Positions 5,940 through 35,155 of a stretch of DNA of 64,000 nt are shown here, in pieces. The stretch covers positions 130,299 to 194,298 of the forward strand of contig JACRJM010000003.1 of assembly GCA_016219965.1 (NCBI GenBank). The letters run 5' to 3'. A program made the position numbers and the translations under genes. The notes beneath the pieces were generated by a model. The model did not search any database and was not told where the DNA came from. It saw only the letters and a list, made by a program, of their open reading frames with translations. The stretch comes from Candidatus Schekmanbacteria bacterium (lineage in GTDB: Bacteria; Schekmanbacteria; GWA2-38-11; J061). Positions within the stretch are counted from its first letter, which is position 1, and each line of letters begins with the position of its first letter.

Positions 5940-6314
5940 ATGAAGATTATGATAGTAGACGATTCATCGGTTATGCGAAAAATAGTAACACGAACAATCA
6001 GACAAACCGGTTTTGAAATAGAGGAAATAGTTGAAGCATCTGATGGACTGGATGCATTGGAAAAACTGAAATCTTACACAAGCGATTTGATTCTCTGTGA
6101 CGTTAATATGCCAAACATGAATGGGTTAGAATTTGTAGAGAAGGTAAACGCTGAAAAAATCGCACCTGAGAGTGACATTATTATGGTCACGACTGAAGGA
6201 GGAATAGACATCGTAAACAAGGCTGTGGAAAACGGCGCCAAAGGATTCATAATCAAGCCATTTACTCCAGAAGATTTCGTCGCCAAGGTAAAACATTTAT
6301 GCAAGAGGTGGTAA
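5940..6314 (+). CDS. cheY: Chemotaxis response regulator CheY
   Basis: Single REC domain (MIVDDSSVMRK…LILCDVNMPNMNG…KP). AGGAGG RBS upstream. Confidence 0.85.
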   Translation: MKIMIVDDSSVMRKIVTRTIRQTGFEIEEIVEASDGLDALEKLKSYTSDLILCDVNMPNMNGLEFVEKVNAEKIAPESDIIMVTTEGGIDIVNKAVENGAKGFIIKPFTPEDFVAKVKHLCKRW

Positions 6315-6358
6315 AATTCACGCTGCCGATGAAACCCTTAAAAGAAAGCGCATAATAT

Positions 6359-6838
6359 ATGGAATCAATTATATCGCTTATGTCAGAAACTGCAGTTGAG
6401 GTGCTTAAAAAAATGGCTTTTTTAGATGTAGAACACATAAGGAATGATGAACCCATTTCAAAAGCTATAGAAAATGTCCACATGTGTTCAATGATCATGC
6501 TCGACGGTACGTTAAAAGGCTCTATCGTTTTTCATTGCTCTGATAAACTTGCGAAACAGGTGACATGCGCTCTTTTAGGGGAAGATATGGCAAATGACAT
6601 AGCAGATATGGATATAAAAGACGCAATAGGTGAAGTTACAAATGTAATTGCAGGAAATGTTAAAAACAAGATTTCGAATTTAGGTCATAGCTTTTCTCTT
6701 TCTTCTCCTAAAGTTTTGGAATGGGGAGAATATGTGATCGAACTTAAGACTAAAGCACGCCAGGGGATTATGGAATTTACCTCGGGAAAAGAAACTTTTT
6801 TTATTGAGTTGTTATCAAGTAATGGGTCTCACGATTAG
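6359..6838 (+). CDS. cheX: CheX-type CheY-P phosphatase (CheC/CheX/FliY family)
   Basis: Contains the D-x3-E-x2-N-x21-P active-site motif (DAIGEVTNVIAGN…SSP) in a protein of about 155 aa. Confidence 0.7.
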   Translation: MESIISLMSETAVEVLKKMAFLDVEHIRNDEPISKAIENVHMCSMIMLDGTLKGSIVFHCSDKLAKQVTCALLGEDMANDIADMDIKDAIGEVTNVIAGNVKNKISNLGHSFSLSSPKVLEWGEYVIELKTKARQGIMEFTSGKETFFIELLSSNGSHD

Positions 6839-6851
6839 ATAAACAAAACAT

Positions 6852-7877
6852 GTGAAAAGTGACATGGCCAATCCTGTTGAGAAAATAAAAGAAACTATTG
6901 ATGAAATCCTTGACTCTGTTGAGAATGAAATAGTTACTATTTTCAATGCATTGTTTGGAAAGCTTGTCAGTTGTTTTCTAGCAGGTGTGTCAGTTACAAC
7001 CGCCAAGGAATTCCTCGATCCACGAAAAGGTAAAAAAAGCTTCCTTATAGATCTTAATACTAATGAAGAAATAAAGGGAGATATCTTTATCTGTCTCGAC
7101 CACAAAGAAGCTTGCTGGGTTTCAGCAATTATGAATGGCCTTGCTGAATCAATGGCAGATGAAAAAGAAAAAAGCGGCCAATTTGATGAAAATGATATTG
7201 ATGCTGTTTCAGAAGTTGGCAATCAATTAGCTGGAAAATTGAATTTTGTCCTCAAGCCTATTGCCAAGAAAAAACTACATTTTATTAAAACCAGGCATTT
7301 TTTGACTGAAGAGATGCAGGGAGAAGACAATAAAATACCTCTTGATGAAGAAGAAACTGTAATTATCCCTAAATTCTCTTTTTCCTCTGAGGGGAAGGAA
7401 ATAGGATTTATTTATGTAATGTTCCCGGTAAACTTTGCTTCCCTGATGGTTGGGATACCTCTCAGTGGCGACACTCAAGAAAAAGATAATGAAAGTGAAT
7501 CTGCTAAATTAAGAAAGATAATCCTCCTTTGCCAGCAAATTGATAGCAAGGAAGAAGCACTTTATAATATGGTTGCAGATAAGTTTTCGGCAAGCTTTAT
7601 TACCTGTAAGCTTAACTCTGCTCTTGAGGAAAACCCAGAAATTAAAGAAGCAGATCTGATTTTCGTCGACTCCTATGATGATCCAAACAGTGGGATAGAC
7701 ATATGTAAACAGCTTATAGCGTTAAAAAGCAGTAAAAAAAAATCAATAATTCTCAGTTCAAAAAATATAACAAAAGATCTTTTGCTCCAGGCTATATCTA
7801 CCGGAATTTGTGACATCATAGTAAAGCCCGCTTCTACAAAAACAATTATGCAGAAAGTACAAGCGAATATAGGGTGA
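6852..7877 (+). CDS. CheC/CheX-like domain fused to a degenerate receiver (pseudo-REC) domain; start uncertain (GTG 6852 or ATG 6864)
   Basis: The N-terminal half contains a D-x3-E-x2-N motif (DAVSEVGNQLAG). The C-terminal roughly 120 aa have REC topology (…DLIFVD…, IILSS, IIVKP) but lack the N-terminal acidic pair, which is replaced by IILLCQQ. Confidence 0.45.
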   Translation: MKSDMANPVEKIKETIDEILDSVENEIVTIFNALFGKLVSCFLAGVSVTTAKEFLDPRKGKKSFLIDLNTNEEIKGDIFICLDHKEACWVSAIMNGLAESMADEKEKSGQFDENDIDAVSEVGNQLAGKLNFVLKPIAKKKLHFIKTRHFLTEEMQGEDNKIPLDEEETVIIPKFSFSSEGKEIGFIYVMFPVNFASLMVGIPLSGDTQEKDNESESAKLRKIILLCQQIDSKEEALYNMVADKFSASFITCKLNSALEENPEIKEADLIFVDSYDDPNSGIDICKQLIALKSSKKKSIILSSKNITKDLLLQAISTGICDIIVKPASTKTIMQKVQANIG

Positions 7878-7881
7878 GGTT

Positions 7882-10629
7882 ATGGCATTAAATATAGAAA
7901 AAATAAATGAGATTGTTAATCAGCTTTCAATATCTTTGATTTCTGAAAACGGCAATTTTTTTTCTATTCCGCAAGTTAAAGCAGAAATAATAGAACTTCT
8001 AGAGTTACTCAATGCAGGCACTACCCCTGAGCTGTCAAATATATGCAATGAGATTAACGCAGTTATTCAGAAAGCTTCAGAATGTAAGAGTAATAAAAAT
8101 ATAGGTGATCCGACAAAAAGAATTTCAGAACTATTAATAAGTCTTCAGAATCTGATTCTCTCAACTCCACACCGGTCAGACAGCGATATATCTAAAAAGA
8201 ACACTCAATCATCTGGAGAGCCACATTTTGCCGTTCCAGAACATCAAAAAAAGGATGAAGAGATGCTTAATATACCTGATGACGAAAGAGAAATTTATGG
8301 AGATTTTGTTACAGAGAGTCTTGAACATATCCAACAGATAGAAAAAGGAATATTGGAACTTGAGAACAACAGTGCTGATGCAGAGATAATCAACAGTATG
8401 TTCCGTTGTTTTCATTCCATTAAGGGAAATTCCGGTTTTTTAAATCTTAAAGTGATGAACAATTTATCTCATAAGTGTGAGGGACTCCTTGACAAGCTCA
8501 GAAGCAAAAAAATGAACTATACTGAAGAGATTACAGATATTGTTCTTGAAGCAATTGACATTCTCAAGGGTATGCTCGGTGATATTGGTGCTGCGGTTCG
8601 CGATAAGCAACCGCTTAATTGTCACTATGAAATTGAAACATTTCTACAAAAAATAGAAGATGTTAAAAATCCTATCATTACTAAGGATGTCACTAAACCA
8701 TCAGATGTAAATAAATCTGATTCTGCTGAGATTAAACAACCCCAGGAGGCCACTTGTGATGAATTCAATGTTAACTCTTTAGTTAATAGGGAAGAGGAAG
8801 AGTTTATTCATCTTCCAGAGGACTCTGATATTAGCCTGATTGGTGAATTTATAACAGAAAGCAATGATAATATAGCTGGTGCTGAGGCCGCTCTTCTTTC
8901 TCTTGAAACTCAACCTGACGACATGGAAGCAGTTAACACATGCTTTCGAGCTTTTCATACAATGAAGGGAACTGCCGGTTTTATTGGCATAAAACCTATG
9001 GCAGAATTTGCTCATCACGCTGAATCACTTCTCAGTCGTATCCGTGACCGCAAAATCTCCTATACTCCCGGATATGCAGATCTGGCACTGCGTTCGATAG
9101 ATATGTTCAAGGAATTAATACAATCCCTACAGACTGTCTTAGGAGGAGAAACTGCAAGTAAACCTTCAGGCTACACTGAATTAATTCATGATTTAATGAA
9201 CCCTGAATCTGTCACTGCAAAGAATTCTATGCCAGAGATTGTCACTCCAAGGCTCGGAGATATTCTTGTTGCTGATGGAAAGGCTGACCGGAATGAAGTC
9301 GAAAAGGCTGCGTCATCTAAGAGCGAAGAACCAATAGGAGTAAAATTGGTAAAAAATGGCGCTGCATCCCTTCAGGATGTTGCAGGTGCCATACGTAAAC
9401 AACAATCTACTGCTGCTGGTGACAGCAACATTTCGGATACATCTGTACGAGTCAGGACAGACCGTCTTGACCGTCTCATAGATATGGTGGGTGAGCTTGT
9501 AATATCTCAGTCTATGGTTTCGCAGGATATAAGTGTAGCAGGCAATGGCTATCATGAGTTGTCAAAGAAAATTTCTCATACAGGAAAAATAGTAAGAGAG
9601 TTGCAGGATCTAACTATGTCAATGAGAATGGTGCCTCTTAAACCCACTTTCCAGAAAATGACACGACTCATAAGGGATCTTTCACGTAAGAGCGGAAAGA
9701 TTGTCAATTTCATTACACAGGGTGATGATACCGAGATAGACAGGAATATGGTTGATGTCATTAACGATCCTCTTGTACATATGCTTCGCAATGCTGCGGA
9801 CCATGGTGTTGAGTTGCCGGAAATCAGGGAAAAGAATGGGAAAGCAAAAGAAGGGACTATTTCTCTCTCAGCATACCATTCAGGCGGAAATGTTGTGATT
9901 GAAATTAAGGATGACGGCAAAGGAATTGACAGGGAAAAGGTAATTAAAAAAGCTGTTGCTGCCGGTCTTATTGACCCGGGGAAAAATCTGTCTGACAGCG
10001 AGGTGTTTAACCTTATATTTGAACCAGGCTTTTCTACAGCAGATAAAGTAACGGATATTTCGGGCAGAGGAGTTGGGATGGATGTAGTTAAGCGAGGAGT
10101 AGAGTCATTAAGGGGAAAGATTAATCTGACATCAGTTGCAGGCAAGGGAAGTACTTTTTCCATGTATCTGCCGCTCACAATGGCAATAACTGACGGTATG
10201 CTTGTTAAAGTAGGAAGCGAACGCTATCTCATTCCTACAGTGAATATTTCCATGAGTTTTAGACCTGATGCCAAACTCCTTTTTACGGTTGGTGAAAAAG
10301 GAGAAATTGTAATGCTTCGCGACAATCCTGTTCCAATATTCCGATTGCACAGTCTGTTTGGGATTAAAGGCGCAGTTGAAAATCCTTTAGAAGCATTGCT
10401 TGTTATCATAGATGACGGAAATCAACAGAATGCACTTCTTGTTGATGAATTATTGGGTCAGCATCAGGTTGTGGCAAAACCGCTGGGTAACTGGTTAGGA
10501 CAGATCCCCGGAGTATCTGGTGGCGCAATCCTGGGAGATGGACATGTCGGATTAATTCTTGACTCATCAGATCTTATTGCGGCGGCAAAACAAAATAGTA
10601 CTGCAAGTGATTGCAGATATGCAGCATAG
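7882..10629 (+). CDS. cheA: Chemotaxis histidine kinase CheA with two N-terminal Hpt (P1) domains
   Basis: Two Hpt motifs (HSIKGNSGFL and HTMKGTAGFI). Dimerisation domain (RLDRLIDMVGELVISQSM), HATPase_c (HMLRNAADHG…GRGVGMDVV) and a C-terminal CheW-like domain follow. Confidence 0.9.
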   Translation: MALNIEKINEIVNQLSISLISENGNFFSIPQVKAEIIELLELLNAGTTPELSNICNEINAVIQKASECKSNKNIGDPTKRISELLISLQNLILSTPHRSDSDISKKNTQSSGEPHFAVPEHQKKDEEMLNIPDDEREIYGDFVTESLEHIQQIEKGILELENNSADAEIINSMFRCFHSIKGNSGFLNLKVMNNLSHKCEGLLDKLRSKKMNYTEEITDIVLEAIDILKGMLGDIGAAVRDKQPLNCHYEIETFLQKIEDVKNPIITKDVTKPSDVNKSDSAEIKQPQEATCDEFNVNSLVNREEEEFIHLPEDSDISLIGEFITESNDNIAGAEAALLSLETQPDDMEAVNTCFRAFHTMKGTAGFIGIKPMAEFAHHAESLLSRIRDRKISYTPGYADLALRSIDMFKELIQSLQTVLGGETASKPSGYTELIHDLMNPESVTAKNSMPEIVTPRLGDILVADGKADRNEVEKAASSKSEEPIGVKLVKNGAASLQDVAGAIRKQQSTAAGDSNISDTSVRVRTDRLDRLIDMVGELVISQSMVSQDISVAGNGYHELSKKISHTGKIVRELQDLTMSMRMVPLKPTFQKMTRLIRDLSRKSGKIVNFITQGDDTEIDRNMVDVINDPLVHMLRNAADHGVELPEIREKNGKAKEGTISLSAYHSGGNVVIEIKDDGKGIDREKVIKKAVAAGLIDPGKNLSDSEVFNLIFEPGFSTADKVTDISGRGVGMDVVKRGVESLRGKINLTSVAGKGSTFSMYLPLTMAITDGMLVKVGSERYLIPTVNISMSFRPDAKLLFTVGEKGEIVMLRDNPVPIFRLHSLFGIKGAVENPLEALLVIIDDGNQQNALLVDELLGQHQVVAKPLGNWLGQIPGVSGGAILGDGHVGLILDSSDLIAAAKQNSTASDCRYAA

Positions 10630-10669
10630 ATACTTTTTAAAATGACAAAATTTAAAGAGGGAAAGAAAC

Positions 10670-11182
10670 ATGTTAGGTGGAAATGAAGGGATAAATGAAA
10701 ACCGAGATAAGGGATTTAATTCCGAAAAGGCTGCTGGCAAGTCTGGCGAAACAAAGAAATTTCTCAGCTTTTTTCTTGGAACAGAAGAATACGGAATAGA
10801 CATTGTTAGTGTCCACGAGATCATTGGTGTATTACCCATAACTTCAATTCCATACACTTCAAATTTTATCAAGGGTGTAATTAATCTTCGTGGGAAGATA
10901 ATTCCGGTAATTGACTTAAGGCTCAAGTTTGAAATGAGTGAAGCTGAATATACAGAAGAAACATGCATAATAGTTACCCAGTCGGAAAACTTACAAGTTG
11001 GTGTCATCGTAGACAAAGTATCAGAGGTTCTAGATATTTCACCCTCTCAAATTGAGGATGTGCCATCTTTTGGAATAAGAACAAATATTGATTACCTTTT
11101 AGGCATCTGTAACATCAGGGGAGGAGTCAAACTTTTGCTTGATATAGATAATGTACTTTCAAGCAAGGCAGCTTCAGCATAA
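10670..11182 (+). CDS. cheW: Chemotaxis coupling protein CheW
   Basis: 170 aa with a CheW fold (FLSFFLGTEEYGIDIVSVHEII…NLRGKIIPVIDLR). Confidence 0.85.
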   Translation: MLGGNEGINENRDKGFNSEKAAGKSGETKKFLSFFLGTEEYGIDIVSVHEIIGVLPITSIPYTSNFIKGVINLRGKIIPVIDLRLKFEMSEAEYTEETCIIVTQSENLQVGVIVDKVSEVLDISPSQIEDVPSFGIRTNIDYLLGICNIRGGVKLLLDIDNVLSSKAASA

Positions 11183-11252
11183 ATACATCGAAACATCTAT
11201 AAAGAATAATTTTGGCAATGAATAAAAATGAATAAAATGGAGGGGAATAGTT

Positions 11253-13736
11253 ATGTTGAATAGAATCAAATCAAGTCTGTCTATTAAAATTTGTACTCTC
11301 GTTGCCAGCGTTTTGACCATAGTGCTCGCGACAACCGGTTATTTCCAGATTAAGGACAAGGAAAGTATGTTTATGAACGACTTAATCGAAGAGTCCTCTA
11401 ACATGACGTCAGTTTTAGATTCATCCCTACATCAGGGAATGATGAAGGCTGATATGGAAGGAATTGACGATGTGTTAAACAAGACAGGCCAGATAAAAAA
11501 AATAAAAAGGGCCTACATACTTTCATCCTCAGGCAAAGTTTTCAAATCTTCAGATAAAACACTGGTTGGGAAAACTGAAGGACAGTCAGCGATTGAAAAG
11601 ATTAAAGGGACAAGGCAGAATTTTTTTGAACTAATGAAAACTTCTGACGGTAATCCTTATGTAATGGGATTAAGCGCAATTTCGACTGAAAAAGGGTGCA
11701 TCGAGTGTCACGCAGAGTTTAAGGAAGGGGAAACAATCGGCTACCTTGGGCTTGATACATGGGCTATAGATAATTTCAAAGATCTTGAGGCGAGCACAAC
11801 AAAGACCGTTCTTTCTTATGCGATTGCCGTTATGCTTCTCCTCGCTACAATAATTTTTATTATCAGGAAGTCTGTAAATCCTATTGTCAATATTTCCAGG
11901 GCCGCCAGCTTAATTTCAAAAGGTGACTTAAATCAGTCAGTAGATTTTCATTCTGATGATGAGGTAGGAGCTCTTGCAAATTCTTTCCGTGAACTCATCG
12001 ATTACATCAAGAAAGTGAGCGATGCAGCAGATCAGTTAAGCAAGGGGAAACTGAAGATTGATATTGAGATGAAAAGTGACAAGGATGAATTAAATAAATC
12101 CTTTCAGCAATTACAGATAACCATGAATAATCTTGTTACAGAAATTGATCAGATGATCCAATGGGCTAAGGATGGAGAACTTCAAAAACGCGGTGATCCA
12201 TCTAAGTTTGAAGGAGGTTATCGCAAATTAATAAAGAGCACAAATGAAATGCTTGATGCGGTAATCGAGCCTGTGAACGACGCCTCCAATGTTCTGGAGC
12301 GAATAGCAGAAAAGGATCTTACGGCGCAGATAACCGGAGACTATAAAGGTGACCATGCTAAGATCAAAAATTCTCTGAACAGAGCTGTTTTCAATCTAAG
12401 CAACGGGCTTGAACAGGTTGCTGTAGGAGCAGACCAGGTTTCATCCGCATCTTCAGAGATAGGAAGCGGAAGCCAGTCGCTGGCTCAGAGTGCGTCTGAA
12501 CAGGCTGGTTCGCTTCAGGAGATATCGAGTAGTTTGCATGAGATAGCATCAATGACAAGACAAAACAGGGAAAATTCCAAAGAGGCAGAAGCCCTTTCTA
12601 GTGCAGCCAAGTCCAGTGCCAATAAGGGTGTAGAAAGCATGAAGCGACTCTCCGATGCCATTAACAAGATTAAGGCATCTTCAGACGAAACTGCAAAGAT
12701 TGTAAAAACCATTGATGAGATAGCATTTCAGACAAATCTTCTTGCCCTAAATGCTGCAGTTGAGGCTGCCAGAGCTGGAGATGCAGGAAAAGGATTTGCC
12801 GTAGTTGCTGAAGAAGTAAGAAATCTTGCAATGAGAAGCGCTGAAGCTGCGAAAAACACTGCTGCCATGATTGAGGGTTCAGTGAAAAAGTCTGAAGATG
12901 GCGTTGTGATCAATAAGGAAGTTTTAGCCAATTTAGAAGAAATAAATGGGAACGTGACTAAAGTCAGTGAGGTTATGTCTGAGATATCTGTCGCATCAGA
13001 GCAGCAAAGTCAGGGGATAGAGCAGCTAAACACTGCTGTGGAGCAGTTAAACCAGGTTACCCAGCATAATGCGTCATATTCAGAGGAATCTGCAAGTGCA
13101 GCACAGGAACTTTCCGGACAGGCATCTGAAATGAAAAATTTAGTTAATAGCTTTAAACTTGGAAAGTTTAGCAACAACGATAGTACTGATATGGAAAATA
13201 ATAGTAGAAGACTACGCACAACAGGGACAAGAACTGTAAGCGCAATGCCGGAACACCGAAAAACAGGAAGCTCTGCCAGCTCATCTGTTGACTTTTCTTC
13301 AGCAAGAACCAAGCACAGACTCTGGATTACAAGACTCAGGTCTTTTTTAGACGGCAAGGAATCGCTTACTGAGCAACAGATTGTCTCACATAAGGACTGT
13401 GACCTTGGAAAATGGATCTATGCGGAAGGCATTAAAAAATATGGAAACATTGCCCAGTTCCAGCAGCTTGAAAAAATACATGAGGATTTTCATTCAAAGA
13501 TAAAGACTGTTAAACAGCATAGAGATTCAGGAGATATTCAGCTTGCTGAACAGGCTTTTGATAAAATGATGCCAATCTCTGAACATGTAATTTCTCTGCT
13601 TAATGATATTGAGCAGAAATTAAAATCTCCCAATTCAAGTACTGTTTCTCAACAGGGAGAGATGGAATCAGATGGTTTAGGAAAAATAGTTCCCATGCGT
13701 AATGATATGGAAAAAGCTTTCTTGCAGTCTTTTTAA
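11253..13736 (+). CDS. Methyl-accepting chemotaxis protein with a periplasmic CxxCH (c-type heme) sensor domain, HAMP repeats and a C-terminal CZB zinc-binding domain
   Basis: TM1 at residues 12-32 and TM2 at about 186-208. The periplasmic domain of about 150 aa contains CIECH. HAMP and MCP signalling domains (…[31 protein letters not shown]…) follow. The C-terminal HRLWITRL…CDLGKWIY…HEDFH matches the CZB Hx3W…CxLGKW…H motif. Confidence 0.85.
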
Positions 13737-13798
13737 TGCTTAACGCTGTGTAACTATTTTGACTGGAATATTTTTCTGGGGACTTTTGGAGGAAAAAA

Positions 13799-14650
13799 AT
13801 GAGCAATATTTCCGCAAACGAAACTGCACACAGTATTGCAACTTTTCATCTCAAAGAAGCCGAGTTTAAAAAAATTTGCAGGATCGTATACAGTGTATGC
13901 GGAATAGATCTGCACGAAGGGAAGGAAGAACTGGTAAAATCGCGCCTTTCTAAGCGCCTCAGGGCTTTGAATATAAATAGCTTTGAGAATTATCTTACTT
14001 TTATTGAAAAAGAGCCTTCAAAAAAAGAATTAAATTATATGGTAGATATATTGACTACCAATAAAACATATTTTTTCCGGGAATCTCAGCACTTTGACCT
14101 TCTTAAACAAAAAGTCATTCCAAAACTTGATCATTCAAAAATCAGGTTCTGGAGTGCAGGGTGTTCGTCCGGAGAAGAACCATACACTCTTTCCATTCTT
14201 TTAAGGGAAGAAATACCTGATATTGATAAAATTGATGTAAAAATTCTTGCTACAGATATATCCTCAAGGGTTCTCGAAAAAGCAAATTCAGCAGTTTATG
14301 AAAAAGAAGCCTTCAATGATCTTCCTCAGGCATATTTAAGAAAATATTTCACCAGCGTTGGATCTAACTCGCATCAGTCTTTCCGTGTAAATGAGAACAT
14401 AATGAAAACAGTTTATTTTGCACAGCTAAATCTCATGGAACAGTGGCCCATGGCAGGAAAGTTTGATGTCATATTTTGCAGGAATGTTATGATTTATTTT
14501 GACAGACCTACCAGAGAAAAACTGATTAACCGTTTTTGGGATTACTTAGTTCCCGGAGGATATCTTTTTGTAGGACATTCTGAAAGCCTCACAGGACTTT
14601 CGCATCAATTTGGTTATGTTCAGCCAGCGGTTTATATTAAATCCAATTAA
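13799..14650 (+). CDS. cheR: Chemotaxis protein methyltransferase CheR
   Basis: CheR N-terminal and SAM-methyltransferase domains (RFWSAGCSSGEEPYTLSILL). Confidence 0.85.
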   Translation: MSNISANETAHSIATFHLKEAEFKKICRIVYSVCGIDLHEGKEELVKSRLSKRLRALNINSFENYLTFIEKEPSKKELNYMVDILTTNKTYFFRESQHFDLLKQKVIPKLDHSKIRFWSAGCSSGEEPYTLSILLREEIPDIDKIDVKILATDISSRVLEKANSAVYEKEAFNDLPQAYLRKYFTSVGSNSHQSFRVNENIMKTVYFAQLNLMEQWPMAGKFDVIFCRNVMIYFDRPTREKLINRFWDYLVPGGYLFVGHSESLTGLSHQFGYVQPAVYIKSN

Positions 14651-14672
14651 AATAAAGATATGAGGTTTTGTA

Positions 14673-15197
14673 GTGATATATACTGTTGGCATTGCTGATA
14701 TGAAGATTTCGACTCAACATTCTGACATTATAATTACCTATGCTCTTGGAAGTTGTCTTGGAATTACAATTCATGACCCTGTGGCCTGCGTAGGTGCTAT
14801 GCTTCATATCATGCTACCTACTTCTTCAATAGACATACAAAAGGCAGCACAGAATCCCTGCATGTTTGTAGATACAGGAGTGCCCAAACTTTTTAATGAT
14901 TGTTACAAGTTTGGAGCGCGCAAAGAAAGACTTGTCGTGACAGTTGCCGGAGGCGCAAGTCCATTAAGCGTATCCGGGAATGATCATTTTCAGATTGGCA
15001 ACAGGAACTTTATAACATTAAGAAAACTTCTCTGGCATAATGGAGCGCTGCTTAAAGCATATGACGTCGGTGGAACAGTTGCTCGTACCATGTCTCTTGA
15101 GATAGGGACGGGCAAAGTAGTTGTGAAACATAGTGGCGGCGAAACAAAAGTAATTAACATTGACGTCGAAGATTGCAACGTCGGAAGGAGAAATTAA
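14673..15197 (+). CDS. cheD: Chemoreceptor glutamine deamidase CheD
   Basis: Motif ALGSCLGITIHDPVACVGAMLHIMLP; GTG start. Confidence 0.8.
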   Translation: MIYTVGIADMKISTQHSDIIITYALGSCLGITIHDPVACVGAMLHIMLPTSSIDIQKAAQNPCMFVDTGVPKLFNDCYKFGARKERLVVTVAGGASPLSVSGNDHFQIGNRNFITLRKLLWHNGALLKAYDVGGTVARTMSLEIGTGKVVVKHSGGETKVINIDVEDCNVGRRN

Positions 15198-15202
15198 CCT
15201 TT

Positions 15203-15592
15203 ATGCTAAACATACTGATTGTAGACGACAGCGCAGTTATGCGTGCAATGATAATCAAGACATTTAAGCTTTGTGGTATTCCCTTTGGTGAAATAATGGA
15301 AGCTTCAAACGGAAAAGAAGGGATAGATGTTATTGACACCAAGTGGGTTGACCTCATTCTTGCTGATATCAATATGCCGGTTATGAATGGCATAGAGATG
15401 ATAGATAAAATACAAAAAAATCCTCAAACTGCAGATACTCCCATAATAGTGATATCAACGGAAAGCAGCCAACCCAGGATAGAAGCCCTCAAAAACAAGG
15501 GCGTACACTTTGTAAAAAAACCATTTACTCCTGAAATTCTGAGAGAAACCATTACAAATATTATAGGAATAAAATTCAATGGAAAAGATTGA
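15203..15592 (+). CDS. CheY-like single-domain response regulator (second copy)
   Basis: REC domain MLNILIVDDSAVMRA…ILADINMPVMNG…KKP. I start it at the internal ATG 15203, which has a GGAGG RBS, rather than the ORF-track 15173. Confidence 0.8.
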   Translation: MLNILIVDDSAVMRAMIIKTFKLCGIPFGEIMEASNGKEGIDVIDTKWVDLILADINMPVMNGIEMIDKIQKNPQTADTPIIVISTESSQPRIEALKNKGVHFVKKPFTPEILRETITNIIGIKFNGKD

Positions 15593-16049
15593 AAATATAT
15601 TACTGAATGCGGCTACTAATGCTTTTGAACAGTTATGCTTCATGTTTAGTTCTCCTGATGATGAAGATACTGAAAAAAATTTACGTACCTGGGTAGCGTC
15701 GATTGTGAATTTTTCCGGCCCATTTTCTGGTAAATTAATTGTAAGAGCGCACAAAGGGTTGCTTAATGTAATTGCTTCAAACATGCTGGGGGAAGAGGCA
15801 TCAACAGCCAAACAACAGATAGATGCGCTTGGGGAAGTTTCAAATGTCATATGCGGAAGCGTTCTCCCTCAGATTGCCGGAGTAGCAGAGGTTTTTAATC
15901 TTGAAGCTCCGAAAATTCTTCAAAATTCTGAACCTGTATCACCTCAAAATGGAGAAAAAATGGTCTTTGTCAGCATGACTTTGGATGAGGGACGAGTTGA
16001 ATTACAACTTTTCATTAAAGAGGGATTAGAGCTTTTAAAGGAGGTCTAA
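15579..16049 (+). CDS. CheX-type phosphatase (second copy)
   Basis: DALGEVSNVICGS…EAP matches the D-x3-E-x2-N-x21-P motif. Overlaps the preceding cheY by 14 nt. Confidence 0.7.
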   Translation: MEKIENILLNAATNAFEQLCFMFSSPDDEDTEKNLRTWVASIVNFSGPFSGKLIVRAHKGLLNVIASNMLGEEASTAKQQIDALGEVSNVICGSVLPQIAGVAEVFNLEAPKILQNSEPVSPQNGEKMVFVSMTLDEGRVELQLFIKEGLELLKEV

Positions 16050-16050
16050 T

Positions 16051-17112
16051 GTGATCCGTGTACTGGTCGTAGACGATTCAGCGGTTGTAAGGAAAGTATT
16101 GACTGAAGAACTTTCCAAATATGAAGGGATTGAAGTTGTCGGAAGTGCAATAGATCCATATATTGCTCGTGAAAAAATCATCAGCCTTCGTCCTGATGTC
16201 ATAACCCTTGATTTGGAAATGCCAAGGATGGATGGCTTATCGTTTCTTTCAAAGTTAATGAAATTTTATCCATTACCTGTCATAGTTGTAAGTTCTCTTA
16301 CACCTGAAAACAGCGCTACCGCGATTAAGGCTCTTGAACTTGGAGCAATTGATGTAATATGTAAACCTGGTTCTGCTTATTCCATACCCAATGTATCTCA
16401 TCGTTTAGTAACTGCCATACGTGCTGCCGCAACTGCCAAAGTTGTCAAAATGCAGGATGTTAGCGAGAGCCAATCTTCTGTTGCATCGATAAGCGGATTT
16501 CAGCTTCAAACTACACATAGAATTATAGCTATTGGAGCATCAACTGGAGGAACAAAGGCAATAGAAGCTGTTCTGACTAAATTGCCTCCTACAACGCCAG
16601 GTATAGTTATAGTGCAACACATGCCTGAATATTTTACCGCAGGATTCGCAGAAAGACTTAACCAGATATGCAGAATGGAGGTAAGGGAGGCCAAGAACAA
16701 TGACCCTGTTGTACCGGGCGTTGTTCTGATTGCACCGGGTAATTACCATATGGTTTTGGAAAAATCAGGTGCTCGTTATTTCGTAAAGATAAAAGATGGC
16801 CCCTATGTCCACTATCAGCGTCCAAGCGTGGATGTACTGTTCCATTCTGTTGCAGCTAATGCCGGAAGAAATGCAGTCGGCGCCATTTTAACAGGAATGG
16901 GGGCTGATGGAGCTCAGGGACTTTTGAAAATGAGAGAAAACGGAGCACATACTATTGCTCAAGATGAACAATCATGTGTTGTCTTTGGAATGCCAAAAGA
17001 AGCTATAAATCTTGGGGCAGCTGATGAAATAGTTCCACTGCAGGACGTAGCACAGGCATTACTAAATGCCCTGGTTGATAACGATAATATAAGACAGGTT
17101 AAGACAGCCTGA
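16051..17112 (+). CDS. cheB: Chemotaxis response regulator protein-glutamate methylesterase CheB
   Basis: REC domain plus CheB methylesterase domain (IAIGASTGGTKAIEAVL…GMGADG). GTG start with AAAGGAGG RBS. Confidence 0.85.
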   Translation: MIRVLVVDDSAVVRKVLTEELSKYEGIEVVGSAIDPYIAREKIISLRPDVITLDLEMPRMDGLSFLSKLMKFYPLPVIVVSSLTPENSATAIKALELGAIDVICKPGSAYSIPNVSHRLVTAIRAAATAKVVKMQDVSESQSSVASISGFQLQTTHRIIAIGASTGGTKAIEAVLTKLPPTTPGIVIVQHMPEYFTAGFAERLNQICRMEVREAKNNDPVVPGVVLIAPGNYHMVLEKSGARYFVKIKDGPYVHYQRPSVDVLFHSVAANAGRNAVGAILTGMGADGAQGLLKMRENGAHTIAQDEQSCVVFGMPKEAINLGAADEIVPLQDVAQALLNALVDNDNIRQVKTA

Positions 17113-17190
17113 GAAGTAAAATATGTTTAAAAACTACAATAATGCGGAATGTAGCATGTATACCACTATATTCAAAGGAGGTAAAAAACC

Positions 17191-18045
17191 ATGAGCAGAC
17201 TTGATGAAATCATGGAGAAAGTAGATAAGTTACCTCCTTTTTCGAATGTTGTTGGCAGGGCAGCAGCCTTATTCAGCAACCCTGAAATAGAGCCAGAAGA
17301 AATAGTAGATGTAATTAAATTTGAACCTGCCATTACTGCAAACGTCCTGAAAATATGTAATTCTGCTTATTATGGCCTTATGAGAAAAGTAAGTTCCCTC
17401 AAGGAAGCAGCAACATATCTCGGGACCGAAGAACTCCTGAAAATTGCACTGGCAAACGGCATGGCTGATGTATTGAAAGACAATATAAAGGGCTATGATC
17501 TTAAAGAAGGGGAACTCTTTAAACATTCTATCGGATGTGCAATAGCATCCCAGTTGTTATCAAAAAAACTTTTTGTTCAGAATTCGAATATACTTTTTAC
17601 AGGATCTCTTTTGCATGATATCGGCAAGCTCATCTTAAGTGAATTTGTAAATGAGGAATACAATAATATACATAGGATGGTTGTTGAAAAACAATGTTCA
17701 TTCATAGAGGCTGAACGAGAGATACTTAACACAGATCATGCGGAGATAGGTGGTTTTTTAGCTGATGAGTGGAAATTTCCTGAGGAGCTCAAGGCAATAA
17801 TAAAATATCATCATGAGCCTGCAAAAGGCCCTGAATCGCAGCAACAGAATATCGAAATAGTTCATGTAAGCGATCTGTTGTGTCTTATATCCGGGATAGG
17901 GATAGGATCTGATGGTATGGCTTACAGGGCATCGCTCCAGCAAATTAACATTATAAAGCTTATTGACAGTAGCCTTGAATCACTTATATGCGACCTTATT
18001 ACAGAACTTGAGAAAGTGAGTACTTCATACAATCTCAGCAATTGA
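17191..18045 (+). CDS. HDOD domain protein
   Basis: HD-related output domain (…NVLKICNSAYYGLMRKVSSLKEAATYLG…HDIGKLIL). Last gene of the che operon. Confidence 0.7.
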   Translation: MSRLDEIMEKVDKLPPFSNVVGRAAALFSNPEIEPEEIVDVIKFEPAITANVLKICNSAYYGLMRKVSSLKEAATYLGTEELLKIALANGMADVLKDNIKGYDLKEGELFKHSIGCAIASQLLSKKLFVQNSNILFTGSLLHDIGKLILSEFVNEEYNNIHRMVVEKQCSFIEAEREILNTDHAEIGGFLADEWKFPEELKAIIKYHHEPAKGPESQQQNIEIVHVSDLLCLISGIGIGSDGMAYRASLQQINIIKLIDSSLESLICDLITELEKVSTSYNLSN

Positions 18046-18063: not shown

Positions 18064-18951
18064 TTACTCTGGAAATCCCTCTACTTCTCTGCAGAACTCG
18101 TTGGCTCTTAGTCCCTGGGTCCTTACTAAATTTATCATATCAATTCTTTTTTGCGTAAACCATGCTTCACGCAAAGGCCTGTCGGATATGTTTGAGACCG
18201 GATCCACCCATGCTCCAGCTTCACAAGGACAAAGTATAATATTCCCGTCAGTGGTAATTGACATTTCGTTTTCTATGAAATAACAACTTCTGGAATCAGG
18301 TACGCAGGGAATTGCCTCTTTGTCTAAATCACCGCCTCTTAAACGATATGAAGGGAACTGTACCTTTTTTATCCCCAGCTCGTTAAAGAACTTTTTAAAT
18401 TCCTCCCATCCTTCTGAAACCGTAATGGGAAGCTGTATTTTGGAAATCCAGACCTCTGCCGTTGAACCGGTCTTATGTTTGATATCCATAAACCTTTCTA
18501 CATTCTCCAATACCACACTTAACGGCAGGCCTCTTATGTATTTATATAACTCGTGGTTTAACGTATCAATGGAAAAAACTATTATGTCTGTATTACTTTC
18601 GAGGAGCCTGTAAGCTCTTTCCTCGTTGAGCAGATAACCTGTTGTTGTTATCCAGTTTGCAATCCCTTTGCTATTAGCCCTTTTCATAAAGCCGTATATC
18701 CTGTCGTCACAAAGGGGATCGTTAATCCACTCCCAGTTTATAAAACACTCCCAGTCAATCTCGTCCAGGATCTTATCGATCATCCAGTCAGGCATCAGCT
18801 TGTTCTTGCGTGTTTGAAGAACCTTGCTTCTGGGGCACATTATGCAGTTAGCCGGACACTGAGTTGTCGTCTCAATGGAAAAGTATGCCGGAAGATGAAG
18901 TCCTTCCCATACGTCCTGACCTGGGTAACGGAGAATAGCGTTCTCAGCCAA
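18064..18951 (-). CDS. Radical SAM enzyme with C-terminal SPASM/twitch domain
   Basis: CPANCIMCP (Cx3Cx2C) near the N-terminus. The C-terminal Cys cluster is CPCEAGAWVD…. Confidence 0.7.
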   Translation of the reverse strand: MAENAILRYPGQDVWEGLHLPAYFSIETTTQCPANCIMCPRSKVLQTRKNKLMPDWMIDKILDEIDWECFINWEWINDPLCDDRIYGFMKRANSKGIANWITTTGYLLNEERAYRLLESNTDIIVFSIDTLNHELYKYIRGLPLSVVLENVERFMDIKHKTGSTAEVWISKIQLPITVSEGWEEFKKFFNELGIKKVQFPSYRLRGGDLDKEAIPCVPDSRSCYFIENEMSITTDGNIILCPCEAGAWVDPVSNISDRPLREAWFTQKRIDMINLVRTQGLRANEFCREVEGFPE

Positions 18952-21850
18952 AGCAAACTCCCTTTTCCAGTATTCTGTTCATGTCTGCTAACTCTTCATG
19001 CCTGTTAACCTGCTTATGCCCCTCATACCAGTATCCAAGCGTATTCCCTATCTCGGAAGCAACAATCTTAAACAATGCTTCTGAAAAATCTTTTTTTCCT
19101 ATTTTTAATGAGTTATGATTTTCAAGAATATATTTCATGAGATTTTTCATTTGCTCATTAAAGTTAGAAAACATGTGGTTGTATTTGAATGGGTTGCCGC
19201 TGCCTTTATGTCCATTGGTACAATTAATTTCAAGGAGCAGATTTTTTAGACTTGCTTCATCACAGGCAGTACCATTGAATTTTCTTACCTTGTCATAGAA
19301 ATTTTCTGTTGATTCATTTAACAGTTGAAGAAATGCCTTGAAATCATTGGGTGTTATGTTTGCCTGCGGTTCCCACTCAGAAATTGACATCTTTATTGTG
19401 TCATAGAGAACCCATGATTTATGGGCTATATCCCTAAGTGAAGATATATGGAGAGTTTCAAAATTGGGCACCTCATTTCCGAGAAGCTCTGTAAATGCCT
19501 TCATGCCATTGTAATTCCTCTTAAGGAAATAATCAGCATTCTTGTAGTGCCAGTGATATACCCCGCAGGAATAAAGAAATCCAAGGTGCTCTCCGTTCCG
19601 TGCCATTCTCATCCCTGCCTCGATGTCCTCGGCGTTTGATATTTTTTTAAATCCATATTTAAGGAGAGATTTCTTTGAATAACATGCACAAACATTGTCA
19701 ATAAATGAGACTTTTCTCTTTAATTGCTCCGGCAGACAGTCAAAAGATTCTTTGTCCTGTAAATAGTATTCTACGTCCCTGTCAAATCCGTAGGAGTTAT
19801 ATGTTATATCGGTAATCCATCTGCTGTAAAGGTCGGCATCAGAATTTACCATCTGCCTTATTGAGAGAGCTGCAAGCTCAGGAGATGCCTTAAAAGTTTG
19901 AGCTATCTTGTATAACAGATAATCGCTGGCAGGAAGGGCATCATGTACCGTATAGAGGACATAATCGCCGCTTGCGTGTTCCGCTGCCAGCTGCCTCGTC
20001 GCACCATGATTAAAAGATTCCCTTGGTATCTGAACAATCTTTGCTCCATTCTTTGCAGCAACTTCCAATGTGCCGTCAGTGGAACCTGAATCTATAATAA
20101 CTATCTCAACATCCTTCACCTTCTTTTGTTTTTTTATTTTATCCATAAGAGCTATAAATTGCTGCCCACCGTTCAATACTGGGATTACTATTGAAAATTT
20201 AGCATCAGCACAGCTGGCATCAGATATATTGCTTTTTATGGGATTGAATGTCATCAACTTGCTTAATGTCTTATTCAAAGTGGCACTTCTATTGAGGAAT
20301 TTCTGATTTGTATGGTCCAAAAGATTATTCAATTCCCTGTTCTTTTCAAGCTCGCTCTGATAGCGTTTATGCATCATATCTATTATGCTTACAGTCCCAT
20401 CAAATGCTTTAGCTTTAAAGATATAGTCGTCACTGTCCGCAGTTGACTGGCCATTTGCAGGTTCAACAGAATTAGATGTTTCTTTTTTATCCATTTTATC
20501 ATCAGCGGCAAAAACAGAATCATCTACCATGATTTTTTCAAGAAATGAGTAGTCGACACCTTTTACCTTTGCAGCCATTTTCCCGCGGTTTGACATATCT
20601 TCCACAGAACCATCGCACATGATAAGGTTGTTTTTCTTATAGAAGTCAAAAAGAGTACTTCCCGGGACAGGAGTGTAAAGGGCCGGCGAATAATGGATAG
20701 GCTTGACTTTTAATACTCCAGCCACTGTCATTATATCATCTTCTTTATGCCAGCCTGTATCAGTGGGGATGCCTAAAATATAATTTGCCCAGATCTTTAC
20801 ACCATACTTGTGTAATATTTCTGTAGCCCTGAAATTGTCCTCGGGAGTTGCCTTCTTGTTAAACCATTTTAATATCCTTGGGCTGAAAGACTCAAAGCCA
20901 ATAATAAGAAATGCAAGGCCAGAGCCTGCCATTTTTTCTATTAAATCCTCGTTCTTGCAAATTACATCTGCCTTAGAAGATGTAACCCATTTGAAACCGC
21001 TCTTTACAAAGCCTTTATCATGAAGAGCCTGCGTGAATTCTTCCACCCACTCGCGGGACATTATAAACTGGTCATCATGAAACATGGCAGACCTGATACC
21101 ATACTTATCCCTAAGCATCTCTAACTCTGCAATCACATTTTCAACACTTCTTCCCCTGATATAGGAAATGCGTTTGCCATCCTTATCAAGCCTTGTGTAA
21201 AGTTGATGTTCTCCGGGTCCGCAGCAGAATGTGCAGTTAAAGGGACAACCTCTGGTATTCATAAGTTCAGCCATAGGGAGAGGGAAATGAAATTTTTTCA
21301 AGCCAAAGGGCTCGCAGTTCATTCTTACATCATAATCCGACCAGATCTCCCTGTCAGGAAACGGGATCTGGTTTAAATCAGGAGTTTTCCCCCAGGAATA
21401 TTTCGGGAACTTTGATGGGTTTTCAATAAGCTCTGGAAAACTTATTTCACCTTCTCCCTGTATTACATAGTCAAAGGCGCCTGTCTTAAGACATTCCTCG
21501 GGAAACATAGTAGGGTGAATGCCACCCGCAACCCTCATAGCTTTTGGGAGGATGGCAGAGGCTATTTTTCCTGCTTCTACAGCTATTGAAAATTCCACAG
21601 AATGGATTGAAAATCCTATTACGTCAGGAGAATTTTTCTTTAACAAAGTCTTATATTCATCCCAGCCGGAAAGCATCCTGAAGTCCACAAGGAAAACCTC
21701 ATGTCCTTTAGATTTAAGCGCTCCCGCCAGATAAGCTAGTCCAAGACGTATGAAAATACTGTCAGGAGATGGTTTTTTTAAATCAGCATCCCACGAACTA
21801 TAGGCTAAGGCTGGATTGACTAAAAGAACTTTTGCCATTTTCCTCTCCAA
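18944..21850 (-). CDS. Fusion protein: B12-binding (class B) radical SAM domain + GT2 family glycosyltransferase + unknown C-terminal domain
   Basis: The N-terminal 150 aa form a cobalamin-binding-like Rossmann region (KVLLVNPA…DVIGFSIHS). Radical SAM CPFNCTFCCGP follows. A GT2 domain starts near residue 555 (FSIVIPVLNG…IIDSGSTDGT). The last roughly 200 aa resemble nothing I recognise. Confidence 0.65.
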   Translation of the reverse strand: MERKMAKVLLVNPALAYSSWDADLKKPSPDSIFIRLGLAYLAGALKSKGHEVFLVDFRMLSGWDEYKTLLKKNSPDVIGFSIHSVEFSIAVEAGKIASAILPKAMRVAGGIHPTMFPEECLKTGAFDYVIQGEGEISFPELIENPSKFPKYSWGKTPDLNQIPFPDREIWSDYDVRMNCEPFGLKKFHFPLPMAELMNTRGCPFNCTFCCGPGEHQLYTRLDKDGKRISYIRGRSVENVIAELEMLRDKYGIRSAMFHDDQFIMSREWVEEFTQALHDKGFVKSGFKWVTSSKADVICKNEDLIEKMAGSGLAFLIIGFESFSPRILKWFNKKATPEDNFRATEILHKYGVKIWANYILGIPTDTGWHKEDDIMTVAGVLKVKPIHYSPALYTPVPGSTLFDFYKKNNLIMCDGSVEDMSNRGKMAAKVKGVDYSFLEKIMVDDSVFAADDKMDKKETSNSVEPANGQSTADSDDYIFKAKAFDGTVSIIDMMHKRYQSELEKNRELNNLLDHTNQKFLNRSATLNKTLSKLMTFNPIKSNISDASCADAKFSIVIPVLNGGQQFIALMDKIKKQKKVKDVEIVIIDSGSTDGTLEVAAKNGAKIVQIPRESFNHGATRQLAAEHASGDYVLYTVHDALPASDYLLYKIAQTFKASPELAALSIRQMVNSDADLYSRWITDITYNSYGFDRDVEYYLQDKESFDCLPEQLKRKVSFIDNVCACYSKKSLLKYGFKKISNAEDIEAGMRMARNGEHLGFLYSCGVYHWHYKNADYFLKRNYNGMKAFTELLGNEVPNFETLHISSLRDIAHKSWVLYDTIKMSISEWEPQANITPNDFKAFLQLLNESTENFYDKVRKFNGTACDEASLKNLLLEINCTNGHKGSGNPFKYNHMFSNFNEQMKNLMKYILENHNSLKIGKKDFSEALFKIVASEIGNTLGYWYEGHKQVNRHEELADMNRILEKGVCFG

Positions 21851-34240: not shown

Positions 34241-35155
34241 TTATTTCTCTTTCTTCTCTGAAAAGTACTCAACCACCATTTCTCCCAAAAATCCAAGCGA
34301 GATTACCTGCACCCCAAGTATCATCAAGGCAACACCTAAAATGAGCATCGGAATATGTTCCTTGATGTCGTAAACGCTGAGCATGTAATCAGATATTACC
34401 TGGAGCATATTGATAAGAAACCCAAATGAGAAAATAGTTCCTCCGGTGGCACCGAAAAAATACATTGGCTTCTTCATGAATGACAGGCGGAATTTCACGA
34501 CGACCAGATCTATTATGCCTTCAAAAAGCCTCCTTGCACCAAACTTAGATTTGCCTGAGTTTCTCTCATACCAGTTTGTTTCAACTTCTTTGACTTTGAA
34601 ACCTTCGTGGTAAGCAATTGGAATAATATAACGGTGCCAGTTTGCCCGGAGAGGCAGTTCATTTATTACCTCTTTCCGGAAAGCTTTTATCCAGTTCTGG
34701 TCCTTTGCTTTTACTCCGAAAAGAAGGTAACAGACAAAATTATAAAGCCTTGATGCCAGTACCTTGAATTCTTTTCTCCCTACCCGGCAGCCAACTGCTA
34801 AATCATAACCTTCATTTATAACACTTAACAGTTTCGGAATGTCTTCCACCGGGTCAGACTGCATGTCGGACGGTAAAAATATAATAATGTCTCCGTCTGC
34901 ATGACTGAATCCTGTAACAAGGGCACTTGTAAGTCCTGTTCTTTTTCTGTGGTGAAATACTCTAATATTTTCATTTTTTCTCTTTAGCGATTCTGCTATC
35001 TCTCCGGTCTTATCACTGCTCCCGTCATTGATTATTATTATATTCCCCTTGAGGGATTCCTGGTGGAATGACTCATTAATCCTGCCTACAACCTTTTCAA
35101 GATTTCCTTCTTCATTGCATGCCGGAAGTACAACGCTTATTAGTGTGTCCATCAC
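34241..35155 (-). CDS. Polyprenol-phosphate glycosyltransferase (GT2; DPM1/ArnC/GtrB-like)
   Basis: ISVVLPACNEEGNL…IIINDGSSDKT…DGD with two C-terminal TM helices. This is the characteristic GtrB-type architecture. Confidence 0.75.
   Translation of the reverse strand: MMDTLISVVLPACNEEGNLEKVVGRINESFHQESLKGNIIIINDGSSDKTGEIAESLKRKNENIRVFHHRKRTGLTSALVTGFSHADGDIIIFLPSDMQSDPVEDIPKLLSVINEGYDLAVGCRVGRKEFKVLASRLYNFVCYLLFGVKAKDQNWIKAFRKEVINELPLRANWHRYIIPIAYHEGFKVKEVETNWYERNSGKSKFGARRLFEGIIDLVVVKFRLSFMKKPMYFFGATGGTIFSFGFLINMLQVISDYMLSVYDIKEHIPMLILGVALMILGVQVISLGFLGEMVVEYFSEKKEK

Follow-up and report, generated by a model that had tools for sequence, protein, structure and literature searches.

A Candidatus Schekmanbacteria chemoreceptor combining a predicted periplasmic haem-c sensor with a cytoplasmic CZB domain

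The gene and the architecture of its product

The DNA considered here is a window of 64,000 nucleotides (64 kb) from a Candidatus Schekmanbacteria metagenome-assembled genome (MAG), positions 130,299 to 194,298 of contig JACRJM010000003.1 (GenBank assembly GCA_016219965.1), and all coordinates below are those of the window. The subject is a gene for a methyl-accepting chemotaxis protein (MCP) at 11253..13736 on the + strand, the strand of all its features. The gene begins with ATG and encodes 827 aa identical to NCBI MBI5374350.1, which is annotated as a ‘HAMP domain-containing protein’. A strong Shine-Dalgarno sequence, GGAGGGG (11239..11245), can be read 7 nt 5′ of the ATG, and the N-terminus is in register with that of its homologues in the alignment. 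The product is a transmembrane chemoreceptor with standard class I topology. An earlier, sequence-only reading had described this open reading frame (ORF) as an MCP with a periplasmic CxxCH motif and a cytoplasmic chemoreceptor zinc-binding (CZB) domain, and both the architecture and the topology bear this out.

The topology was derived from Kyte-Doolittle hydropathy and flanking charges. The first transmembrane segment (TM1, approximately residues 9-31; 11277..11345) is an uncleaved signal anchor and the second (TM2) covers approximately residues 186-206 (11808..11870). Basic residues are found at the cytoplasmic flanks of both, R4, K6 and K12 for TM1 and R205 and K206 for TM2. As there are two hydrophobic segments with basic flanks, and a HAMP domain directly after TM2, residues 32-185 (11346..11807) are assigned to the periplasm. 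This region of approximately 154 aa is the sensor, of the sCache_heme type and the GSU0582/GSU0935 branch as set out below. It holds the single CxxCH that had been expected in a periplasmic domain of about 150 aa, and hydropathy places the motif on that side of the membrane. The motif reads CIECH (C149, C152 and H153; 11697..11711) and is the predicted site of covalent haem-c attachment, with its His as the proximal ligand. Met63 (11439..11441) is the predicted distal axial ligand from conservation and profile alignment. The whole MCP contains four Cys only (C14, C149, C152 and C716) and one CxxCH.

The cytoplasmic part begins with HAMP (PF00672, residues 202-252; 11856..12008; Pfam E = 5.2e-17), followed by HAMP_2 (PF18947, residues 318-379; 12204..12389; E = 7.5e-24) and the MCP signalling core (PF00015, residues 448-603; 12594..13061; E = 3.6e-43), the conserved hairpin tip of which is formed by residues 505-515. 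A linker rich in Ser, Thr, Asn and Arg (residues 641-684; 13173..13304), probably disordered on the basis of composition and codon differences, leads to the CZB four-helix bundle (model residues 680-791, Pfam core 688-753; 13290..13625). The protein ends in a tail (residues 792-827; 13626..13733) that is predicted to be disordered and is absent from P0039, a distant metagenomic MCP with the same two modules. The CZB domain had been placed at the extreme C-terminus; this does not hold, as approximately 35 disordered residues come after the bundle. A C-terminal pentapeptide for binding of CheR/CheB was considered and rejected, since the end of the tail, ...AFLQSF, does not match the xWxxF-type pattern.

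The periplasmic sensor domain

Relatives of the sensor were sought by exhaustive phmmer over 1.84 billion cluster representatives, which returned 60 sequences, the best of them with 43% identity. A CxxCH is found at the equivalent position (around residue 148) in 57 of the 60. C149, C152 and H153 are invariant in the aligned sensor sequences (54/54), the overall identity of which is 20-43%, and the CxxCH forms the only invariant block across the family. Met63 is kept in 52 of the 54 and is invariant in alignment A2, while Asp67 is kept in 47 and several Gly are conserved too. Judged by this conservation, the CxxCH is not a chance motif. Word-indexed homologue searches, both with the sensor alone and with a 42-sequence sensor profile, gave no matches; a full-length MCP query recovers a 97% ortholog, which the sensor-only word-indexed search did not return.

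The 42-sequence profile of the sensor family matches two structures of Geobacter chemoreceptor sensors, 3B42 (GSU0935; E = 1.8e-7) and 3B47 (GSU0582; E = 3.9e-7), with the CxxCH motifs aligned. The likeness to the Geobacter heme-PAS chemoreceptors, which the sequence-only reading had noted, thus proves to be real homology. In each structure the Met that is invariant in the family corresponds to chain residue 26, which is Met60 in both (C140 being chain residue 106). In GSU0935 the haem is ligated by His144 and Met60 (PMC8396549). Within the 61 sensor-family sequences there are 13 matches to PF21563 (Mcp40H-20_sensor) and four to PF11845 (Tll0287-like) at E <=0.001. Membership of the haem-sensor family is transitive, via the family profile, because the query alone is below the Pfam cut-off.

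An AlphaFold2 (AF2) model of the sensor, built from the family alignment, has a mean predicted local distance difference test score (pLDDT) of 94.7 and a predicted TM-score (pTM) of 0.86. The fold is a single Cache/PAS-like domain, with two helices, the N-terminal one long, and a sheet of five strands. The CxxCH (model residues 122-126) lies on a short helix (120-124) between strands 108-117 and 134-143. A Foldseek search with this model returned the sCache domains of WalK, CitA, KinD and DctB, together with 3B42 and 3B47.

The profile homology to 3B42/3B47, the aligned Met60 and the predicted Cache/PAS-like fold agree, and the periplasmic domain is therefore a divergent member of sCache_heme, in the GSU0582/GSU0935 branch. 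This family, described in a February 2026 preprint by Deshpande et al., unites DUF3365/Tll0287 with GSU0582 and GSU0935 (PMC12889525); WalK is the haem-free comparator that was used in defining it (PMC12889525, Fig. 1). From the conserved residues, ligation of the haem by His153/Met63 is predicted.

Two other ligand arrangements were considered. The Cys/His ligation of the Tll0287 type is ruled out because the periplasmic domain has no Cys beyond those of the CxxCH. His60 is ruled out as the distal ligand, its alignment column not being conserved.

The branch to which the sensor belongs is a small, divergent part of the haem-c sensor family, comprising approximately 60 clusters at 50% identity and lying mostly outside current Pfam models. 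It is easily missed by automated annotation, because most of the 61 sequences have no significant PF21563 or PF11845 match.

The CZB domain and its linker

The CZB domain scores above the Pfam threshold (PF13682, 48.0 bits against a gathering cut-off of 29.4; E = 1.7e-12; residues 688-753), as the sequence-only reading had anticipated. All four zinc ligands of the 3His/1Cys core are present, as H688, C716, H743 and H747. Their spacing of 28/27/4 is identical in P0039 and the ligands are invariant in the pair alignment. A full CZB motif had been recognised earlier, with the first element given as Hx3W; the actual arrangement is H-x2-W (H688-R-L-W691). The published CZB criterion is CX(L/F)GXW(Y/L) (PMC8262984), and the Cys motif C716-D-L-G-K-W-I fits it except for a conservative Ile in place of Y/L.

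The AF2 model of this region contains helices at 5-23, 41-54, 58-82 and 86-115 (model numbering), with a pLDDT of 81 and a core above 90. It forms a four-helix bundle over residues 680-791, followed by the disordered tail. Among 350,000 PDB chains, the top Foldseek match was 3T9O, the CZB domain of DgcZ (TM 0.69), and the next was the CZB-like MID domain of DosC.

Codon differences between the MCP and its 97% ortholog P0061 were counted by region. There are 19 synonymous and six non-synonymous differences in the sensor, 19 and one in the HAMP region, 18 and two in the signalling domain, and nine and two in the CZB domain. The linker (641-684) has five synonymous and nine non-synonymous differences. 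These are small raw counts from one ortholog pair, and they suggest constraint on both sensory modules but not on the linker before the CZB domain.

Rarity of the pairing

Across the sensor family, the domain is fused to MCP, histidine kinase or GGDEF outputs. The 61 sequences include 42 MCPs and six histidine kinases, and a CZB domain occurs in two only, the query and P0039. Among the 120 best full-length relatives, a CZB domain is present only in the 97% ortholog; the next-closest relatives with full coverage (approximately 50% identity, 680-716 aa) stop right after the signalling domain. Related loci were also retrieved with a 6-sequence sensor alignment, six from genomes and six from metagenomes. 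No CZB domain was found in the six loci from 186,000 species genomes (MAGs of Acidobacteriota, Nitrospinota, Nitrospirota and Thiotrichales), nor in the five non-orthologous metagenome loci.

The pairing of a haem-c sensor with a CZB domain is rare, being present in two lineages among approximately 61 clusters. As the two carriers are distant and stand amid relatives that lack the CZB domain, the pairing either arose twice or is old and mostly lost. A literature search for papers in which ‘chemoreceptor zinc-binding’ and ‘c-type heme’ occur together found none. The text of the sCache_heme preprint contains neither CZB nor zinc (PMC12889525), and that of the CZB census never mentions haem (PMC8262984).

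The sequence-only reading called dual input of this kind uncommon. That is correct for the haem-c/CZB pairing (2/61 clusters) and overstated as a general claim. Chemoreceptors that are membrane-bound and have a C-terminal CZB domain in addition to a periplasmic ligand-binding domain are an established class, cluster II of Perkins et al. 2021, for which four-helix bundle (4HB), globin and PAS/Cache ligand-binding domains are listed (PMC8262984). Since this architecture is already recognised, dual input as such is not new.

Proposed mechanism

The protein is likely to be a two-module MCP, in which a periplasmic haem-c sensor and a cytoplasmic CZB zinc/redox input act on one receptor output. The basis for this is the architecture, the topology, the homology to haem-c structures, the conservation of the ligands and the few changes relative to the ortholog. 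From these we infer the occupancy of the two sites by haem and zinc, the physiological signals and the coupling of the CZB domain to the receptor.

One c-type haem would be attached covalently to C149/C152; H153 would be its proximal ligand, and Met63 would bind as a labile ligand on the distal side. In GSU0582 and GSU0935 the haems are high spin when oxidised and become low spin when reduced, through binding of Met60; nitric oxide (NO) binds to either redox state of both proteins and CO to the reduced state, with displacement of Met60 (PMC8396549). By analogy, a redox change of the haem, or NO/CO displacing Met63, may switch the coordination and spin state of the haem. The change in Met63 ligation would move the N-terminal helix that carries this residue. 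The route of the signal would then be TM2, the HAMP/HAMP_2 array and the kinase-control tip (505-515), with CheA and CheW, the products of genes just upstream, as its targets. Adaptation would be supplied by the CheR, CheD and CheB encoded downstream.

On the cytoplasmic side, the 3His/1Cys site may report labile cytoplasmic Zn2+, oxidation of Cys716, or both, by analogy with TlpD, McpA and DgcZ. Zinc occupancy or oxidation of Cys716 would then bias the same receptor output. Coupling of the CZB domain to the receptor across a flexible tether of approximately 44 residues would be the weakest link of the proposed mechanism.

Several observations weigh against this two-module interpretation. For the haem half, the query gives no PF21563 match at E <=1 in the Pfam scan, and its PF11845 match is sub-threshold (E = 0.26), located exactly at the CxxCH. 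Single-sequence phmmer against the PDB returned nothing significant for the sensor or the CZB region. No cytochrome c maturation genes (Ccm or CcsBA) were seen in the 64-kb window, and CIECH is the sole CxxCH among its stop-to-stop ORFs of at least 80 aa, so that no second CxxCH protein is present in that set. For the CZB half, the model was built from two sequences only. Its Foldseek E-values are weak (0.067), which is usual for helical bundles. The disordered, fast-evolving linker speaks against rigid helical coupling as in TlpD. TlpD is a soluble receptor, and its crystal structures indicate that the coupling there is rigid (10.64898/2026.01.16.699579); as the linker here is disordered, this mode is not directly applicable to the present MCP.

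Alternative readings

Of the alternatives, the one with the best standing concerns the haem signal. The haem domain may sense NO (or CO) specifically, and not ambient redox, so that the receptor would combine NO taxis with cytoplasmic zinc/redox sensing. This is possible, if on the unlikely side. A signalling-linked sCache_heme protein of P. azotoformans is reported to form no stable O2 complex and to release NO slowly, at an off-rate comparable to those of H-NOX and NosP (PMC12889525), and the displacement of Met60 by NO or CO in GSU0582 and GSU0935 is in line with such a role (PMC8396549). The closest solved relatives, however, are read as redox-potential sensors with distinct midpoint potentials (PMC8396549), and the 64-kb window holds no pointer to nitrogen-oxide metabolism. 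NO and redox sensing are not separable by sequence alone, and the NO alternative refines the haem half of the two-module explanation, with which it is compatible.

A second alternative takes the haem domain as the sole true input and the CZB domain as a zinc-stabilised module for structure, dimerisation, localisation or array assembly, carried on a flexible tether. Mechanical coupling of the CZB domain to the signalling helices is hard to picture, because the linker is long, rich in Ser, Thr, Asn and Arg, and fast-evolving, with its excess of non-synonymous over synonymous differences. A 2026 J Bacteriol paper reports that polar localisation of TlpD requires an intact C-terminus (PMC13001251). 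The much shorter connection between signalling domain and CZB domain in P0039 is listed with these points. Nevertheless, this alternative appears improbable. Both independent lineages retain the redox-active Cys motif and all four zinc ligands, identically spaced, the CZB domain shows few amino-acid changes against the ortholog, and experimentally tested CZB domains all modulate output in response to Zn2+ or oxidants (PMC8262984; 10.64898/2026.07.03.735341).

That the CxxCH is a metal site, a disulphide or a chance occurrence in an ordinary small-molecule Cache sensor is very improbable; the query alone falls under the Pfam thresholds for haem-sensor families and its best structural matches are haem-free sCache domains (WalK, CitA), but the motif is the sole invariant block and recurs in 57 of the 60 relatives despite identities of 20-43%, conservation extends to the distal Met, the domain has no further Cys, and there is significant profile homology to two crystal structures with covalent haem on the aligned CxxCH.

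Implications of the proposed two-module receptor

With the two-module receptor preferred, a further proposal can be made, although it is speculative and rather unlikely. The MCP may act as a trans-membrane redox comparator, in which the Met/His haem reads extracellular redox or NO, the tethered CZB domain reads intracellular redox via labile Zn2+ or the oxidation of Cys716, and the output is the difference or the coincidence of the two. It has been proposed in a July 2026 preprint that CZB domains sense exogenous redox potential via the labile Zn2+ pool (10.64898/2026.07.03.735341). If CZB domains are redox sensors, both modules of the MCP would therefore be redox-related, on opposite faces of the membrane. 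The recurrence of the pairing in the distant P0039 would suggest selection for the combination over accidental domain shuffling. A comparator of this kind would, if true, give an anaerobe of a candidate phylum a one-protein means of positioning itself in steep redox gradients.

The work on haem-c Cache domains as detectors of redox or NO, and that on CZB domains in Zn2+-mediated redox sensing, each rest on single-input model proteins. The MCP and the distant P0039 combine both modules naturally and could be used for the study of how extracytoplasmic and cytoplasmic redox cues are integrated. The MCP also allows one to ask whether a CZB domain can signal through a flexible tether. In addition, the annotation improves for a gene whose present label is no more than ‘HAMP domain-containing protein’ and whose host belongs to a candidate phylum without cultured members. 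The degree of surprise for a specialist is moderate to low, and the protein is a reasonable experimental candidate for signal integration by chemoreceptors.

The che operon and the surrounding genes

The MCP gene lies within a complete che operon (5940..18045, +) that encodes CheY, CheX, a response regulator-like protein, CheA, CheW, this MCP, CheR, CheD, CheY, CheX, CheB and an HDOD protein. The receptor is thus genomically associated with CheA and CheW just upstream and with CheR, CheD and CheB downstream. The operon is fully syntenic around the 97%-identical ortholog P0061 in two metagenome contigs (L001 and L002). It holds two CheX, two CheY, CheD and a terminal HDOD protein. CheA (7882-10629, +) has two Hpt domains, seen as two matched stretches, and CheW occupies 10670-11182. 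The 341-aa protein before CheA (6852-7877, +) shows only a weak C-terminal receiver (E = 2.5e-6), below the Pfam cut-off.

The neighbouring genes had been taken as a sign of an anaerobic lifestyle, with AOR, Fe-S and radical-SAM genes named. The radical-SAM and Fe-S genes are present, and no AOR was found among the ORFs of at least 150 aa in the window. The 968-aa product of 18944-21850 (-) is a fusion of a family-2 glycosyltransferase with a B12-binding radical-SAM module. Two further radical-SAM/SPASM proteins are encoded on its flanks, as are several glycosyltransferases of the PMT/ArnT-like type and polysaccharide deacetylases, and this setting suggests an unusual cluster for glycan modification. 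A 625-aa ORF among glycosyltransferase genes (35152-37029, -) has no Pfam match even at E = 1e-3.

Further downstream, one ORF of 732 aa (59242-61440, +) encodes an NtrC-type regulator, made up of a receiver, a sigma-54 AAA+ domain, a lid and a helix-turn-helix-like segment, together with an LpxC deacetylase domain that is complete (residues 461-728). The junction between regulator and LpxC contains no stop or start codon and reads ...KSFGLKKPKKETSTAARIQRTLKTSVVLCGQGLHSGLK. This ORF is either a real and unusual fusion, or the result of a lost stop codon or an assembly error.

Comparison with known systems

The closest characterised relatives of the sensor are those of GSU0582 and GSU0935 (3B47 and 3B42; PF21563). 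Like the query, these are transmembrane MCPs with a periplasmic Cache/PAS-like domain of approximately 130-150 aa and one c-type haem, which in the query is predicted. The CxxCH comes towards the end of the domain and its His serves as the proximal ligand, with the distal Met located in the N-terminal helix (‘MMxxD’). In contrast to the Geobacter proteins, the query is very divergent in sequence, has no PF21563 match and has a different cytoplasmic part, with HAMP and HAMP_2 and a hairpin tip flanked by two arms of approximately 130 residues. A rough estimate from these arm lengths places the MCP near the 36H length class, compared with the 40H of the Geobacter family name. A CZB domain on the Geobacter proteins is not mentioned in the PF21563 family name or the cited papers, the comparison being made by description and not by full-length sequence.

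The DUF3365/Tll0287-like members of sCache_heme (PF11845) share with the query an extracytoplasmic single Cache domain and a CxxCH on a short helix before the last strands, and their nearest haem-free fold is likewise the sCache of WalK. The query differs from Tll0287 in its predicted Met/His ligation, in place of Cys/His, and in having only the sub-threshold match to PF11845.

Proteins with a CZB domain, namely the cluster II receptors and the soluble chemoreceptors TlpD of H. pylori and McpA of Salmonella, resemble the query in having this domain C-terminal to the signalling domain, with the 3His/1Cys site and CxLGxW. The best structural match of the CZB model belongs to E. coli DgcZ. Unlike the ligand-binding domains of cluster II, that of the query is a predicted haem-c Cache. 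Position 2 of its Cys motif is Asp, whereas Arg is the residue enriched there (PMC8262984). A further difference from known CZB receptors is that disordered stretches adjoin the domain on both sides, a linker of approximately 44 residues before it and a tail of approximately 35 after it.

P0039, a 674-aa metagenomic MCP (JGI 3300075153), is the only other cluster with the full arrangement of CxxCH/Met sensor, transmembrane segment, HAMP, MCPsignal and CZB. The two proteins have 27% identity in the sensor and approximately 25% in the CZB domain. P0039 lacks both HAMP_2 and a C-terminal tail, its signalling arms are longer, and its CZB domain follows after a short connection. It adjoins che genes like the query, but in a different che cluster. 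Two further products of that cluster are a 4HB-MCP carrying a hemerythrin domain at its C-terminus and a CheA to which a receiver is fused. The P0039 locus gathers several redox or O2-type chemoreceptor inputs.

Each module of the MCP therefore belongs to a known family. The combination of haem-c sensor and CZB domain on one receptor is rare and does not amount to a new kind of system.

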